This document shows, piece by piece, positions 8,867-13,266 of a stretch of DNA of 64,000 bases. Each line of letters begins with the position of its first letter. Positions within the stretch are counted from its first letter, which is position 1. The DNA is from a virus: positions 5,091-69,090 of IMG/VR virus record IMGVR_UViG_3300037493_005727; one strand, given 5' to 3'. The position numbers were made by a program, and so were the translations under genes. Under the pieces are notes generated by a model. It was not told the origin of the DNA and did no database searches. It saw only the letters and a program-made list of their open reading frames with translations.

Positions 8867-9073
8867 TCACTTGGTACCTCCAGACAAGAGGACCGAAACC
8901 GCCCCTACGATCTTCGGGGCATAGCGTAGATCGTTCAGCGCGTTGTGCAGCATGTTCTCCGCTCGTTGTTGGATCTCTTCGAGGGTGTTGTCCTCTTCCC
9001 AGAACCGCCCGAGATTGAGGTCCAGTGTCACGCGAACGCGGACACCCGTGTCCTTCTTCTCCTTCTTTGCCAT
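8867..9073 (-). CDS. hypothetical protein
   Basis: Track ORF extends into the tRNA. Chosen start MAKKEKKD at 9071-9073, just downstream (on minus) of tRNA-Gly. Confidence 0.4.
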   Translation of the reverse strand: MAKKEKKDTGVRVRVTLDLNLGRFWEEDNTLEEIQQRAENMLHNALNDLRYAPKIVGAVSVLLSGGTK

Positions 9074-9087
9074 GTGCTTCCTCCTTG

Positions 9088-9159
9088 AGCGGGCAGTGGG
9101 ATTCGAACCCACGACCAACAGCTTGGAAGGCTGTGACTCTACCCCTGAGTTATGCCCGC
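9088..9159 (-). tRNA. tRNA-Gly (anticodon UCC)
   Basis: Minus-strand cloverleaf GCGGGCATAACTCAGGGGTAGAGTCACAGCCTTCCAAGCTGTTGGTCGTGGGTTCGAATCCCACTGCCCGCT. Anticodon loop CUUCCAA. Perfect 7-bp acceptor, T-loop TTCGAAT. Confidence 0.85.
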
Positions 9160-9167
9160 TTACGACA

Positions 9168-9239
9168 TAGACGCGGAGGGCTTCGAACCCCCGACCCGCT
9201 GCGTGTAAAGCAGCCGCTCTACCCCTGAGCTACGCGTCT
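9168..9239 (-). tRNA. tRNA-Val (anticodon UAC)
   Basis: AGACGCGTAGCTCAGGGGTAGAGCGGCTGCTTTACACGCAGCGGGTCGGGGGTTCGAAGCCCTCCGCGTCT plus discriminator A. Anticodon loop UUUACAC. U8, A9 and D-stem GCTC/GAGC present. Confidence 0.85.
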
Positions 9240-9240
9240 G

Positions 9241-9314
9241 TGGGACCGGAGGGACTTGAACCCTCAACCCTCGGATTAAAAATCCGATGCTCTAGCCAGT
9301 TGAGCTACGATCCC
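9241..9314 (-). tRNA. tRNA-Lys (anticodon UUU)
   Basis: GGGATCGTAGCTCAACTGGCTAGAGCATCGGATTTTTAATCCGAGGGTTGAGGGTTCAAGTCCCTCCGGTCCCA. Anticodon loop UUUUUAA; discriminator A. Confidence 0.85.
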
Positions 9315-9322
9315 TACCTCAG

Positions 9323-9700
9323 TTACCCGAGGTCTTCAGCCTTCAGCGTTTTTCGACCAGCGGCCACAGCCTTGGTGATCGCCTCCTCCACCATCGACTG
9401 AACTTCGCCACTGAGCTTCTCGATGAGCTCCTCGCCCGTGCGGATGTCTTTCGCCTTGGCGATTGCCTTCACCTTGCTGGTCACTACGAGAATGTCGGAC
9501 ATGCTTTCCTCTGAGTGTGGTCCCGGACAGTCACAGTCTGCGTAGTGTACCTGACAGTCAGGACACCACGGCTCGCCGCAGCCATCCGGGCATGGGATGC
9601 AATCTGCGGCGAGCTTCATCTTCCTCTTTCGTCTTCCTGTCGGTGTCCTCGTGATGCCGTTTCCTGGCCACCGCGAAGCTGGAACAACGATGACCTTCAT
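9323..9700 (-). CDS. Cys-rich zinc-binding domain plus C-terminal histone-fold domain (archaeal HMf/H4-like signature)
   Basis: 125 aa. ATG overlaps the stop of the upstream vWA gene (TGATGA). C-terminal DILVVTSKVKAIAKAKDIRTGEELIEKLSGEVQSMVEEAITKAVAAGRKTLKAEDLG aligns residue-by-residue to archaeal histone HMfB (alpha1, L1, alpha2), including the hallmark AGRKT-I/L-KAEDI motif. alpha3 is truncated. Preceded by CIPCPDGCGEPWCPDCQVHYADCDC. Confidence 0.55.
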   Translation of the reverse strand: MKVIVVPASRWPGNGITRTPTGRRKRKMKLAADCIPCPDGCGEPWCPDCQVHYADCDCPGPHSEESMSDILVVTSKVKAIAKAKDIRTGEELIEKLSGEVQSMVEEAITKAVAAGRKTLKAEDLG

Positions 9701-10761
9701 CAGTAGTCCGAAACCTCATACAGGAACTTCGTACCGCCGAGAAGCTTCCGGTTGTTCGAGGTGCTCTGGATGAAGCAGCGGTAGCCGCCGAGGTCACCCG
9801 GCTTCACCGTCGCGTCTTCGCCGATGGGCATCCCGGCGATCTCTCGAGCCTTGTCACCCGAGTAGAAGTCGCCCGTCGACTTCTCCTGGAGGATGACCTC
9901 CTTGTAGTGCTGGACCTTGACGGACTTCGTGAACTCGTAGAACCCTCGGCCGACCTTGAACTCGACTCCCTGGTCACGCACGAACTCTGAGATGGGCGTG
10001 TCGTCTTCCACCTTCATCATCTGGAACCGCCCCGGCGGGACGGCGTCCATGTTGGCCTTCGACGCCGCTTCGTCCTTGCGCCCGAGCATCCGGTTGAAGC
10101 TCCGGCGCATCGAACGGTTCAAGCGTCCGTCCGCCTTCAGCTCCTCTTCGAACTCCTTGAGCTTCTCATCGCCCTGCTGCTTGTAGGCGACCGCGAAGAT
10201 CATGTCGGTGATGCTGGAGAACTGGTCGAGTTCCAGGTGGAACCCTCCGGTCTCTTCAGCGATGTCCTCGTAGAACTTCGTCGCGTGCTTGCGGTTCAGC
10301 GCCTGAACGCCGTAGACCTGGATGCCCGCCTCGAGCAGCAGCTTGAGCTCGTTGCGCCAGTCCAGCTTCTTGGTGTTCAGCGCCTCGTTCTTCCCGTGCG
10401 GCACGTCATCGCCGATGAGCACGAGAACCTTCTTCTTGCCAGCGGACCAACTGAACGTCTTGGACTCGTGCAGCACGAGCTCGTAGCACTCAGCGGCGTC
10501 GCCACCTCCCGTCGGCTTCACGTTGGTGATGAAGTCGGCGATCTTCTTCTGGTCTGTGCTGAAGTCGAGATGCTTGGTGACGTACGTCGACCCTGCGTCG
10601 CAGTAGTCGCCGTGCGCGATGACACCGATGCGAATGTCCGGCACGTCCTTGAACAGCCGCTTCACCGTCTCCTTTACCTCGCGGCGAACCTGCGTCAGGC
10701 AGGGGTACATCGACCCGGTGGTGTCGAAACTGAAAATCACTTCGATTGCGTCTTTGCTCAT
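9700..10761 (-). CDS. von Willebrand factor A (vWA) domain protein
   Basis: IEVIFSFDTTGSM (MIDAS-like D-x-T-x-S) ... IRIGVIAHGDYCD ... VLVLIGDDVPHG. Start chosen at MSKDAIEV (ATG 10759-10761, AAGGAA RBS), just downstream of the previous gene's stop. Confidence 0.65.
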   Translation of the reverse strand: MSKDAIEVIFSFDTTGSMYPCLTQVRREVKETVKRLFKDVPDIRIGVIAHGDYCDAGSTYVTKHLDFSTDQKKIADFITNVKPTGGGDAAECYELVLHESKTFSWSAGKKKVLVLIGDDVPHGKNEALNTKKLDWRNELKLLLEAGIQVYGVQALNRKHATKFYEDIAEETGGFHLELDQFSSITDMIFAVAYKQQGDEKLKEFEEELKADGRLNRSMRRSFNRMLGRKDEAASKANMDAVPPGRFQMMKVEDDTPISEFVRDQGVEFKVGRGFYEFTKSVKVQHYKEVILQEKSTGDFYSGDKAREIAGMPIGEDATVKPGDLGGYRCFIQSTSNNRKLLGGTKFLYEVSDY

Positions 10762-10780
10762 TTCGGTTCCTTGGTGGTGG

Positions 10781-11389
10781 TTAGCCCGCGTCCTCTTCGG
10801 CGTCTTCGTCATCAGCGGAGTCAACGGATCCACTGCTGACCTTCTCCATGATCTCTACGAAGCGCTGCTCTGCTTTCTTGTGGGCGACTTCCCAGATCTT
10901 GTCGTTCAGGAGGTGCGCCAGTCTTTCCTTGTACGACCTCTCGTAGGCCGCCTTGATCCCCTTCACCTTCGGGTCACCGACGACCAACCCTTCGATGAAC
11001 CCCGGGATCGCCAGTTTGATTTGCGTAAGGGTGTGTTCCCCCAACGCGCGGGCGAGGGCGCTTTGTTCGTGGTGAGAGTCAATCTCCCATTTGCCATCGT
11101 GCCAGTGGTCTTTCTTAACGCCCAGGGCCGTGCAGATTATTTTCCACGCGGCTTCGTTGAGGTGCGAGTCGATCTTACGGGGGAGGTTCTCAATCTCCTC
11201 GATGAGGCTCTCTTTCATTCGCGCGTCGAGCTCAACCTTCAACTCCTCGACGCTCATCTTCTGGAGCCGCTTCTCGTCCTTCGCGTCCTCTTCCTGCTCT
11301 TCCCTTGATCGATAGCCCATTTTCCCTCGGGTTGTTGAGTCGTTTTTCTTCTTGCCGCAAAACTTCTTCAAGGTTCGCAAAGGCACCAT
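10781..11389 (-). CDS. hypothetical protein with strongly acidic C-terminal tail (SADDEDAEEDAG)
   Basis: 202-aa ORF with good GC3. Its 5' 158 nt overlap ORF 11232..11666 in another frame, so the true start is probably internal (MSVEELK or MKESLIEE). Confidence 0.45.
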   Translation of the reverse strand: MVPLRTLKKFCGKKKNDSTTRGKMGYRSREEQEEDAKDEKRLQKMSVEELKVELDARMKESLIEEIENLPRKIDSHLNEAAWKIICTALGVKKDHWHDGKWEIDSHHEQSALARALGEHTLTQIKLAIPGFIEGLVVGDPKVKGIKAAYERSYKERLAHLLNDKIWEVAHKKAEQRFVEIMEKVSSGSVDSADDEDAEEDAG

Positions 11390-11666
11390 CCACAGTACGA
11401 CTCGCCGGAGTCCAGTGCAGGATCGCTACGTCGGCTGCGACGTACACAAGGGTACGCATCAGCATGCCAGGTCCCGCACCTTGGGGGTCTAGAACACCAG
11501 GGGCGTGAACGTGAAACTGCAGCAGCCCCTCGCGCCCCGGGGCGAAGGAGCTCAAGAGCCCCTGCGTCTGCGGGTCCATGAAGAACTGGAACACCTTGTC
11601 TACGCACTCCGAGCAAGGCTCGGCCATCTCAGCCTTGAGCTGAACGAGAGCTTCCTCTTTCGTCAT
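11232..11666 (-). CDS. hypothetical protein
   Basis: 144 aa. N-terminal 110 aa has a coding-like composition. C-terminal 35 aa are low-complexity and overlap the next gene (possible frameshift or genuine overlap). Confidence 0.4.
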   Translation of the reverse strand: MTKEEALVQLKAEMAEPCSECVDKVFQFFMDPQTQGLLSSFAPGREGLLQFHVHAPGVLDPQGAGPGMLMRTLVYVAADVAILHWTPASRTVDGAFANLEEVLRQEEKRLNNPRENGLSIKGRAGRGREGREAAPEDERRGVEG

Positions 11667-11669
11667 GGC

Positions 11670-12002
11670 TCAGTAGTAGTGGTTGCCGACGGCGATACCA
11701 AGCCGCTGGAGATCCTTCTGGTCAAGCCGGTACGTGTCCTTCTGGACGACGTGGTCGATCATGAAGGTGTACCACCCGGCCTGGTCCTTGTGCTCCCGCG
11801 CCTTCTTGGAGAGCTGCTCCACTGGAGTACCCCCGGAGACCTTGCCGACCTCCATGTCCTCTTCGATGGCGGCGATCTGAGCCCCGAGCTCCTTGGCCTT
11901 CTTCTCGTAGGTCTCAGCCTTGCTCTTGTGGTGCTCGAGCCGCTCCGTGAGGATCTTGATGAGCTCGTCCGACTTCACGTCAATTTTCAAACCTTCGATC
12001 AT
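11670..12002 (-). CDS. hypothetical coiled-coil protein
   Basis: 110-aa ORF. Confidence 0.45.
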   Translation of the reverse strand: MIEGLKIDVKSDELIKILTERLEHHKSKAETYEKKAKELGAQIAAIEEDMEVGKVSGGTPVEQLSKKAREHKDQAGWYTFMIDHVVQKDTYRLDQKDLQRLGIAVGNHYY

Positions 12003-12280
12003 TTAGTCTTCCCTTGTAGTTTCTTGATACAGCGTTGAACAGCTTCTTTCAGCTCCGGCGAGGTGATGTGCTGATACTCCATGTCATGCTCTTTGAGCTC
12101 GAGTGCCACCAGCTGAAGCGTGGCTAAAACATCAGCGCGCAGCTCGGTGACCGCGTCGTACGCGGCCCCTTCGAGCTCCATACCGATCTCGGCGATGATG
12201 CCCTTGGCCTCTTTCGAAATCTTGAGGCCCGTCATCACCCGAAGAAATGCCTTCTTGCTACGAGGTTTACGTAGACCCAT
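11999..12280 (-). CDS. candidate second histone-fold protein (H2A-like L2/alpha3 signature)
   Basis: Start MGLRKPRSKK at 12278-12280 with GAGAGGA RBS 7 nt upstream. Central GAAYDAVTELRADVLATLQLVALELKEHDMEYQHITSPELKEAVQR parallels H2A [43 protein letters not shown]. Helix lengths fit alpha1-L1-alpha2-L2-alpha3. Confidence 0.4.
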   Translation of the reverse strand: MGLRKPRSKKAFLRVMTGLKISKEAKGIIAEIGMELEGAAYDAVTELRADVLATLQLVALELKEHDMEYQHITSPELKEAVQRCIKKLQGKTK

Positions 12281-12327
12281 AGTTTTTCCTCTCCCCTTGT
12301 ACCACCAGGGGCACCTATACTTCGACC

Positions 12328-13266
12328 ATGCTGAATGAGCTCGCATACGCCCAAGGCGTCGATGACGGAATGGCGAAATTCGCCATCAGTAAGTACCGGC
12401 AGTACGCCCGAGACACAACGCAGCAGGCGTGGAACAGCCAGCAACCCGCGGACATCGCCAAAGCTCGTGCCGCCGTTCAGGGGGCCTACAAGCCCCGCGT
12501 TCTCGGGTCCGGGGCAGAAGGAACAGCCACACTGCGCATGATGCCGCAGGCTGCGGCCGGGGGAGCGCTTACCCCGACTGTCCGAAAAGAGTTCAACCCT
12601 AACGCTGCGTTGGCCTCGCCAGAAATGATCAATCGACGCATCGCGATGGGGCCCGACCTGAACGAAAGCGGAAACTTCGCCAAGTACTACGGACACGGAC
12701 AGACCGCTGCGGGTAAAAAGTACATCGACTCCGAACTCATCCCAGGGAAGATCGCCCCAGGCGCGGACGTCTCGAAGGCTCAGGCGAACATTGACAGGAG
12801 CGTTCGTTCCGTCGGTATGAAGTCCGGGATGGGCCACATGGCCGCCAAAGACATTCGGGCGGAGAACCTCGGGGTCAACCCCAAGACCGGGAAGACTGTT
12901 GCTCTCGACTACATGCCCATGAAGCGGCAGGAGACCTACGACCCGCGATACGCTCGAATGAACGGGTCTCCTGATCCGACGAGGCCGTACCCCACAGGCC
13001 AAGGGGCAGCGCTATTCCCACATCGGGCTAGCGAATTCGCAGATCCTGGCGGGATTGAACAAAAGATGATGCAAGGGGAGATGAAGAAGAGAATGCAGTC
13101 GAACCCTCAGTCGGTTCTCCCTCCCAACGCCAAAACTCCTGCGCCCGCCGCAGCTCCCGCCCCTGTGGGGCCTGGAACGGTAGCGGCAAGACCCGCGCTG
13201 ATGCCGCAAAAAGACCAACCGGCGGCCCCTCCTGTCGCGGGGCCCTCCGTGTTCGGATCCCTTTGA
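12328..13266 (+). CDS. hypothetical protein (Pro/Ala-rich C-terminus)
   Basis: 312-aa ORF with good GC3 on the plus strand between minus-strand blocks. Antisense ORF 12235..13002 rejected. Confidence 0.5.
   Translation: MLNELAYAQGVDDGMAKFAISKYRQYARDTTQQAWNSQQPADIAKARAAVQGAYKPRVLGSGAEGTATLRMMPQAAAGGALTPTVRKEFNPNAALASPEMINRRIAMGPDLNESGNFAKYYGHGQTAAGKKYIDSELIPGKIAPGADVSKAQANIDRSVRSVGMKSGMGHMAAKDIRAENLGVNPKTGKTVALDYMPMKRQETYDPRYARMNGSPDPTRPYPTGQGAALFPHRASEFADPGGIEQKMMQGEMKKRMQSNPQSVLPPNAKTPAPAAAPAPVGPGTVAARPALMPQKDQPAAPPVAGPSVFGSL

Follow-up and report, generated by a model that had tools for sequence, protein, structure and literature searches.

We analysed a 64,000-nucleotide stretch of viral DNA (hereafter the window; IMG/VR virus record IMGVR_UViG_3300037493_005727, positions 5,091 to 69,090 of that record) which encodes on its minus strand a small protein with a histone fold. 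The gene is an open reading frame (ORF) of 125 amino acids (aa) with an ATG start and a TAA stop codon at window 9323..9700. An earlier reading made from the letters alone (the sequence-only reading) had given a translation for this interval that is exactly that of the ORF, and the C-terminus (AGRKTLKAEDLG), the Cys-rich stretch (CIPCPDGCGEPWCPDCQVHYADCDC) and the basic RRKRK tail quoted there were all found in it. The C-terminal half of the protein belongs to the alpha3-truncated histone family and is closest to the dimeric bacterial histone HBb. The features of the locus are as follows.

9323..9700, minus strand: complete ORF with basic tail, acidic Cys-rich module and alpha3-truncated histone fold (ORF listing, homologues, substitution rates)
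9620..9700, minus strand: N-terminal extension, residues 1-27 (MKVIVVPASRWPGNGITRTPTGRRKRK), net charge +8, predicted to be disordered (pLDDT <50)
9515..9619, minus strand: Cys-rich mini-domain, residues 28-62 (alignments A1 and A4; pLDDT 76-91)
9503..9514, minus strand: acidic linker S63-E-E-S66, codons TCAGAGGAAAGC (from the sequence)
9326..9502, minus strand: alpha3-truncated histone fold, residues 67-125, with RD clamp R116-D123 (profile against PDB, AlphaFold2, Foldseek)
9700..10833, minus strand: upstream gene with a vWA domain, whose TGA stop overlaps the histone ATG by one base (Pfam VWA, E=3.6e-9)
9087..9314, minus strand: cluster of tRNA-Lys(UUU), tRNA-Val(UAC) and tRNA-Gly(UCC) (ARAGORN)

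Twelve fused full-length homologues, all metagenomic, showed 56-97% identity. Ratios of non-synonymous to synonymous substitution rates (dN/dS) were determined against the two relatives that have all three parts (L012 and L014) and amounted to 0.06-0.10 for residues 1-27, 0.05-0.08 for residues 28-62 and 0.14-0.16 for residues 67-125. Every part of the 125-aa protein is under purifying selection (dN/dS 0.04-0.16). The fused homologues and the low dN/dS place the ORF far beyond a chance frame.

The histone domain and its nearest relatives

A search of PDB sequences with residues 67-124 as single sequence detected the bacterial histones HBb (8cmp, 8fvx) and HLp (9qt0) and the archaeal face-to-face (FtF) histone HTkC (9f2c) at E ~1e-5, with end-to-end alignments spanning the whole 59-66-aa chains of these proteins. 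A family profile built from 12 members gave E=3e-11 and 1.2e-10 for the HBb entries 8cmp and 8fvx, 2.5e-8 for HTkC and 9e-8 for HLp. Matches to Tako8 in the PDB sequence search were rejected as repeat-protein artefacts, since no single stretch passes alone. The AlphaFold2 monomer model, built from 68 sequences, places alpha1 at residues 68-83, alpha2 at residues 90-113 (24 residues) and alpha3 at residues 121-124, followed by G125 as the last residue; the L1 loop lies between alpha1 and alpha2, and the L2 loop bears R116-K117-T118. The pLDDT of the histone helices is 70-83. A Foldseek search with this model against PDB returned HLp, HBb and HTkC as the best eight matches (TM-target 0.76-0.81, rmsd 1.7-2.2 A, 28-44% identity), and histones made up 50 of the 50 matches listed. 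Profile matches to solved histones, structural model and fold search thus agree on the histone fold claimed by the sequence-only reading.

General family models performed less well than the profile match to PDB histones, which was significant. Pfam CBFD_NFYB_HMF stayed below its threshold (E=0.023, 15.4 bits versus a cutoff of 21.4, residues 99-124 only), as did NCBIfam archaea_histone (14.8 versus 50), and both models aligned with no more than the final 25-35 residues. The genuine HBb-like proteins P0056 and P0092 are likewise below the Pfam and NCBIfam histone thresholds, and the sub-threshold scores therefore say little on the fold. In terms of annotation, these thresholds miss this class of alpha3-truncated histones entirely. 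The sequence-only reading had also described alpha3 as cut short by the stop codon. The short alpha3 is real, but it defines the whole alpha3-truncated family as established by Schwab et al. 2024 (PMC11390915) and does not set this gene apart. The protein has the RxTxxxxD motif, with R116, T118 and D123 invariant in the family alignment A1, and the RD clamp R116-D123 is the equivalent of R51-D58 in HBb and R55-D62 in HLp.

Comparison with HBb (Bd0055) of Bdellovibrio bacteriovorus (PDB 8cmp, 8fvx, 9ezz, 9f0e) showed the same fold, with an alpha2 one turn short and an alpha3 of 4 residues, ~40% identity over 57-60 residues and a shared N-terminus M-x-[DE]-x-LVVTSKVK. Both proteins have the RD clamp and the K-T loop motif, and both lack the Asn of the FtF tetramer. 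They differ in that the window protein is phage-encoded and bears 66 additional N-terminal residues with a basic tail and an acidic, putatively zinc-binding module, that its histone domain is neutral whereas HBb is basic, and in the exchanges R57 to Glu, S24 to Gly and N22 to Arg. FtF tetramerisation has been assigned to R49/N53 of HLp (HMM R48/N52; PMC12701072). Among the 26 members of the phage clade, the equivalent of HLp N53 is Ala in 24 (A114 in the window protein) and that of HLp R49 is Lys or Arg in 23, so that the Asn alone is clearly absent among the FtF residues. Because it is replaced by Ala, a dimer is expected as in HBb, and from these residues the window protein should behave accordingly.

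The likeness to the archaeal histone HMfB, on which the sequence-only reading had built, holds for one motif only. AGRKT[IL]KAED[IL] in L2 and alpha3 is identical to HMfA/HMfB, including the Glu where bacterial histones have Arg, but overall similarity is weak (HMfA/B: E 0.14-0.6 for the single sequence and 0.015-0.035 for the profile) and the nearest relatives are bacterial alpha3-truncated histones of the HBb type. The archaeal impression was due to the Glu/Asp at the R57-equivalent position, as in KAEDI of HMfB. Moreover, alpha3 has 4 residues in the phage protein versus about 10 in HMfA/HMfB, and the four-helix-bundle interface for tetramers and hypernucleosomes is therefore absent.

An exhaustive HMMER search of 1.84 billion representatives revealed 871 relatives, and no more than two or three of the 50%-identity clusters cover both domains. 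No fused copy appeared when 185,579 representative cellular genomes were scanned by pattern, and tblastn and megablast searches of 50,697 deposited phage genomes gave no histone or DNA match. Many relatives among P0121-P0255 are tandem alpha3-histone doublets of 118-150 aa, and several singlets (P0054, P0056, P0072, P0209) have long Lys-rich N-tails.

HBb and HLp are the only experimentally characterised bacterial histones, and the literature consulted covers phage alpha3 histones by sequence surveys and structure predictions only. The sequence-only reading had left the novelty of the gene unverified. This premise is weaker than assumed, as phage alpha3 histones and histones with an N-terminal zinc finger followed by an alpha3 histone (ZZ histones) have been described since 2024 (PMC11390915; Liu et al. 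2024, bioRxiv 10.1101/2024.12.06.627149). The phage histones of Schwab et al. (A0A2E7QIQ9), or VTTH of Liu et al., share the alpha3-truncated fold and occur in tailed phages. Their histone is N-terminal and followed by a long C-terminal tetramerisation helix, and they are devoid of RxTxxxxD; the window protein, by contrast, has a C-terminal histone that stops right past alpha3 and retains R116-x-T118-x4-D123. Liu et al. further reported 84 bacterial-like histones of Caudoviricetes, including the Bd0055-like BBVH (bioRxiv 10.1101/2024.12.06.627149). BBVH are phage-encoded, HBb-like and predicted to be dimeric, as is the window protein, but by the description in that paper they have an extra C-terminal helix, and zinc, cysteine or finger domains are never mentioned there. 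A near-identical gene is present in IMG/VR genome UViG_3300009169_000014, which is part of the database mined by Liu et al. 2024. Taken alone, the histone therefore adds one more member to an established family. The literature consulted contains no description of its union with an unannotated zinc mini-domain, of the series of fusion, fission and endonuclease insertion, or of the conserved internal start, all of which are set out below.

The Cys-rich mini-domain, the N-terminal tail and the internal start

The Cys-rich mini-domain has eight putative metal-ligand positions, seven Cys and one His (C34, C37, C41, C46, C49, H52, C56 and C58), which vary little or not at all in alignments A1 and A4. 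C49 and C58 are exchanged for His in some relatives, as is typical of metal ligands; H62 is not conserved. The Cys-to-His swaps and the conservation support a metal-ligand role, and with eight ligands within 25 residues we infer two zinc sites per module. The fusion to a Cys-rich zinc module, as proposed in the sequence-only reading, is in line with the conserved module and with a ligand pattern that fits two such sites. Models of the module reached a pLDDT of 76-91 (~90 over the core). Neither a family in Pfam, PHROG or NCBIfam nor a fold match in PDB was detected.

ZZ histones (e.g. D0LYE7; P0119, P0128, P0141, P0149) have a comparable arrangement, an N-terminal two-zinc module followed by an alpha3 histone resembling bacterial dimers. 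The two modules are not homologous, however. The ZZ finger comprises ~46 residues with the pattern C-x2-C...C-x4-C...C-x3-C-x3-H-x5-H, whereas the module of the window protein comprises 25 residues with the pattern C-x2-C-x3-C-x4-C-x2-C-x2-H-x3-C-x-C. An identity with the ZZ finger was rejected, as hhalign of A4 against the ZZ-finger alignment A5 gave a probability of 0.14% and there was no Pfam ZZ match. True ZZ histones were recovered as distant matches of the family profile, through the histone region only (positions 43-101). They are bacterial and mostly histone doublets, whereas the window protein is a phage singlet; many of them have two histone folds after the finger.

Module and acidic linker (residues 63-66) together have a net charge of -7; the median over 115 modules is -8, and for stand-alone module proteins it is -10 (n=82). 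This strong acidity makes it unlikely that the module binds DNA itself. The module was found in ~40 IMG/VR viral contigs, either in proteins of 45-128 aa or inside C5-methyltransferase-like proteins. Its sole match in the deposited phage genomes (tblastn) lies inside an annotated 'DNA methyltransferase' of Curvibacter phage PCA1 (L015, OP588919.1 44254..45309). In L047, L051 and L057 it forms an internal or C-terminal part of C5 DNA-methyltransferase-like proteins, and in P0014 and P0026 it is N-terminal to Endonuclease VII. In some proteins (L019 2228..2494, P0031, P0160) the module is joined to other, unrelated C-terminal regions (137-160 aa); their match to the family profile extends past the module (positions 4-86) and may indicate additional fusion partners. 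The putative zinc mini-domain is widespread and unannotated, and is shared by methyltransferases and an endonuclease of phages and by numerous very small acidic proteins.

Alignment of the DNA with L001 and L005 showed that the basic N-tail includes a 69-nucleotide in-frame insertion directly after the conserved TGATG. The insertion is confined to the sub-lineage of the window and is common to L012 and L014. With 9 synonymous versus 3 non-synonymous codon changes and a clean indel of one codon, the N-tail appears to be translated. The alternative that translation begins at Met28 and that the N-tail is artefactual was rejected for this sub-lineage on the basis of dN/dS and indel phase.

A second start may lie within the gene. 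The Shine-Dalgarno-like sequence GAGGA at 9507-9511 is located 4-5 nucleotides upstream of the ATG of Met67 (9500-9502). In 11/11 loci examined, fused or split, AGGA, AGGAG or AAGGAG is located 4-6 nucleotides before the ATG or GTG with which the histone domain begins, and it is kept despite differing linker residues (SEES, KGVV, EGED, EGVV). From this conservation we infer that the histone domain is also translated alone, and long and short forms may coexist. Gene callers are divided accordingly: different pipelines call identical DNA as 59 aa or 102 aa, and annotations of such DNA are split between 59-aa and 102/125-aa forms. In L001 and L004 the '59-aa histones' are intact fused ORFs called from the internal Met. 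The 59-aa stand-alone histones as evidence against the fusion were therefore partly rejected; genuinely separate histones are present in L003, L008, L010 and L018.

The following arrangements of module, histone and vWA gene were found across the relatives.

Window, L001/L005/L016, L014: fused and coupled to vWA
L007, L012: fused, without vWA
L004, L017: fused, upstream gene not identified
L008/L009, L010: Cys module as separate ORF between vWA and histone (other frame in L008/L009, stop codons in L010)
L003: Cys module fused to an Endonuclease VII inserted exactly at the junction, histone restarting at a GTG
L018: histone alone

In L003 (5387..5998) the Endonuclease VII domain follows the Cys module directly and in frame, separating it from the histone, and the DNA identity to fused relatives decays within the Cys module, a pattern indicative of recombination through this sequence, i.e. 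of a mobile Cys-EndoVII cassette.

Possible functions of the fused protein

For HBb, residues T8, S9, K10, K12, K16, N22, T23, S24, K52, T53 and R57 contact DNA in crystals and simulations of HBb-DNA complexes (PMC11317129). Mapping of these contacts through the HBb alignment showed identical side chains at eight of the eleven positions of the window protein: T74, S75 and K76 (HBb T8, S9, K10), K78 (K12), K82 (K16), T88 (T23), and K117 and T118 (K52, T53). Changed are N22 to R87, S24 to G89 and R57 to E122.

In the reading that we prefer, with a rough probability of 0.6, the protein is a dimeric histone of the HBb type with non-specific DNA binding and bending. It would have an acidic module with two zinc ions, serving as adaptor or regulator, as well as a lineage-specific basic tail, and would be co-expressed with the vWA protein. 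Two chains would form a head-to-tail histone-fold dimer, which would bind DNA without sequence specificity through the N-termini of alpha1 and the L1 and L2 loops and would bend it locally as HBb does, with no wrapping into nucleosomes. Each chain would add an N-terminal acidic mini-domain with eight Cys/His ligands and presumably two zinc ions, most likely a portable protein-interaction or regulatory unit that recruits or tunes DNA-acting proteins. In the sub-lineage of the window this module would be preceded by the +8 disordered tail. The locus would also make the bare 59-aa histone, so that long and short forms could mix in dimers, and the histone gene would be co-transcribed with, and translationally coupled to, the gene of the vWA protein. 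The location in an rII/tRNA region suggests that the protein acts within the infected cell, where it would organise or mark DNA. The DNA-compacting or nucleoid-remodelling role envisaged in the sequence-only reading is a candidate function. Retention of the histone without the Cys module in L003, L008, L010 and L018 speaks for the preferred reading.

Several observations weigh against it. The position of HBb R57, the second-best DNA contact, is Glu or Asp in 26/26 members of the phage clade. The histone domain has a net charge of 0 and a pI of 6.2, versus +3 and 9.25 in HBb, and the median charge of this domain is +1 in the phage clade versus +3 in bacterial singlets. The adjacent -7 module could repel DNA. 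A neutral histone domain next to a strongly acidic zinc module argues against simple coating of DNA. Confidence in the AlphaFold2 model is moderate (mean pLDDT 69.8, pTM 0.35), the 125-aa protein remains under threshold in the Pfam and NCBIfam histone models, and the vWA neighbour is not universal, being absent in L007, L012 and L018. At the R57-equivalent position, HMfB has a Glu, too.

The neutral histone domain, the -7 of the zinc module and the invariably acidic residue at the R57 equivalent would also suit a protein in which the histone fold is mainly a dimerisation scaffold (compare TAFs, NF-Y and DUF1931) that displays a pair of acidic zinc modules for binding by another protein, perhaps the vWA protein, with weak or absent DNA binding. 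Translational coupling to vWA, a protein-interaction fold, is kept in many relatives, and according to Schwab et al. (PMC11390915) a role in DNA organisation should not be assumed for every prokaryotic protein with a histone fold. We nevertheless consider this explanation unlikely. Purifying selection has kept the K-T loop motif and eight of the eleven side chains with which HBb contacts DNA strictly unchanged, whereas proteins of the DUF1931 type are without these residues (PMC12701072). In addition, L018 retains the histone although both zinc module and vWA are missing, L007 and L012 retain it although vWA is missing, and HMfB binds DNA despite its Glu at the R57 equivalent.

It is improbable that only the 59-aa histone is functional and that the in-frame Cys module was left behind by a mobile Cys-EndoVII homing endonuclease, or is its landing site, the fusion having no function of its own. 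The Cys-EndoVII ORF of L003, situated exactly between vWA and a separately initiated histone, would fit this explanation, as would the separate module ORFs in L008 and L010, the absence of the module in L018, the conserved internal Shine-Dalgarno sequence and start, and the frequent choice of the 59-aa form by gene callers. However, the Cys module of fused genes has a dN/dS of 0.05-0.08, fused ORFs persist down to 56% identity (P0016) with the frame undisrupted, the start that overlaps the vWA stop is conserved and in frame with the module, and stand-alone modules are conserved in many phages without any endonuclease.

Known phage DNA mimics are extremely acidic, and so are the stand-alone modules (median -10, n=82). 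A host-takeover or counter-defence factor, whose acidic zinc module would be a decoy or DNA mimic directed at a DNA-binding protein of the host, e.g. a nucleoid protein or restriction system, while the histone fold dimerises and localises it to DNA, would further agree with the presence of the module on methyltransferases, which are classic anti-restriction enzymes, and with the position of the gene in an rII/early-type region. We hold this to be more improbable still: there is no similarity to characterised anti-defence proteins and no match in Pfam, PHROG or NCBIfam, DNA-mimic behaviour cannot be judged from sequence, and the conserved Cys/His ligands suggest a compact metal knot and not an extended mimic surface.

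A chance ORF or mis-annotation, with a coincidental histone-like motif or with the real feature on the other strand or in an RNA, could draw on the sub-threshold Pfam score (E=0.023) but is refuted by the profile match to solved histones (E=3e-11), a fold search yielding histones only, the 871 relatives, the predominance of synonymous changes in the frame of the ORF (dN/dS) and plus-strand ORFs of just 40-63 aa within the interval, and its probability is close to nil.

A broader proposal is tentative, and we would sooner doubt than accept it: an unrecognised, phage-wide acidic two-zinc mini-domain might serve as adaptor that steers histone, C5-methyltransferase and Endonuclease VII to one partner or DNA state, and internal initiation might yield long and short histones whose mixed dimers form a regulated, phage-specific chromatin layer during infection. 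The locus encodes a compact phage histone of 59-125 aa with conserved DNA-contact residues, and its natural fused, split and bare variants, along with the likely internal start, provide a comparison set for the use of histones by phages.

Neighbouring genes and further features of the window

The sequence-only reading had noted translational coupling of the histone gene to a vWA-domain gene, and the histone ATG does overlap the vWA TGA (CTGATGAAG). The longest ORF of the vWA gene (Pfam VWA, E=3.6e-9) starts with GTG and encodes 377 aa, while relatives have 353-355 aa; the true start is probably Met25 (window 10761), which would give 353 aa. A vWA gene of 353-355 aa is located directly upstream in L001, L003, L005, L008, L010 and L014. 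The C-terminal half of the vWA protein matches only phrog_26613, a PHROG of unknown function, and a search of the vWA protein against PDB sequences gave nothing relevant. The tRNA cluster begins 9 nucleotides past the histone stop codon on the same strand. A promoter and terminator scan of 8800..12400 revealed no sigma-70-like sites and no minus-strand terminators, and there is no terminator-like site on the minus strand between histone gene and tRNAs.

A second histone candidate, proposed in the sequence-only reading as possible heterodimer partner and located at 11999..12346, was rejected: hhalign against the family profile gave a probability of 0.15%, there was no PDB match, and Pfam gave just weak coiled-coil/ScpB noise.

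The assignment to a phage, in contrast, was borne out. The window contains rIIA, rIIB, DNA ligase, SNF2 and other helicases, a tail/endolysin-like protein, seven tRNAs and a tmRNA. The syntenic block of vWA, histone, tRNA gap, small ORFs and rIIA/rIIB is also present on a 187-kb IMG/VR viral contig, and the histone was found in two further IMG/VR viral genomes of 168 and 189 kb; the same locus thus recurs in viral genomes of 168-189 kb. The source is probably a large bacteriophage of ~190 kb.

Genes for a response-regulator receiver (PF00072), dCMP deaminase and Tad3 (PF25185)/DUF7694 are located upstream of the locus in L001/L005/L007 and downstream in L008/L010. Tad3 near the histone locus may, we presume, indicate anti-defence content in the region. 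A helicase of the SNF2 family is encoded at 16930..18372 on the plus strand, ~7 kb from the histone gene, and is also found near the histone in L007 (1..454); in Megaviricetes, viral histones are statistically associated with SNF2 proteins (Liu et al. 2024, bioRxiv 10.1101/2024.12.06.627149).

Further features lie at a greater distance from the locus. A 919-aa ORF at 30513..33272 (minus strand) has domains of the Major Vault Protein (MVP_shoulder 5e-23, Vault_3 5e-9, Vault repeat 2e-7); such a vault-like shell protein is unusual for a phage genome. A second tRNA cluster at 33319..34964 (minus strand) comprises Ala, Ser and Met tRNAs and a 'tRNA-???' with a two-base anticodon call at 33548-33620, and the same interval and strand contain the phage-borne tmRNA, with the tag ANDNVDFPQYALRAA. 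Very large ORFs of 1208, 830, 690, 797 and 914 aa (44442..62234, plus strand) and of 1482 aa (21706..26154) gave no PHROG or Pfam match at E<=1e-5; they probably encode structural or virion proteins of an unclassified large phage.

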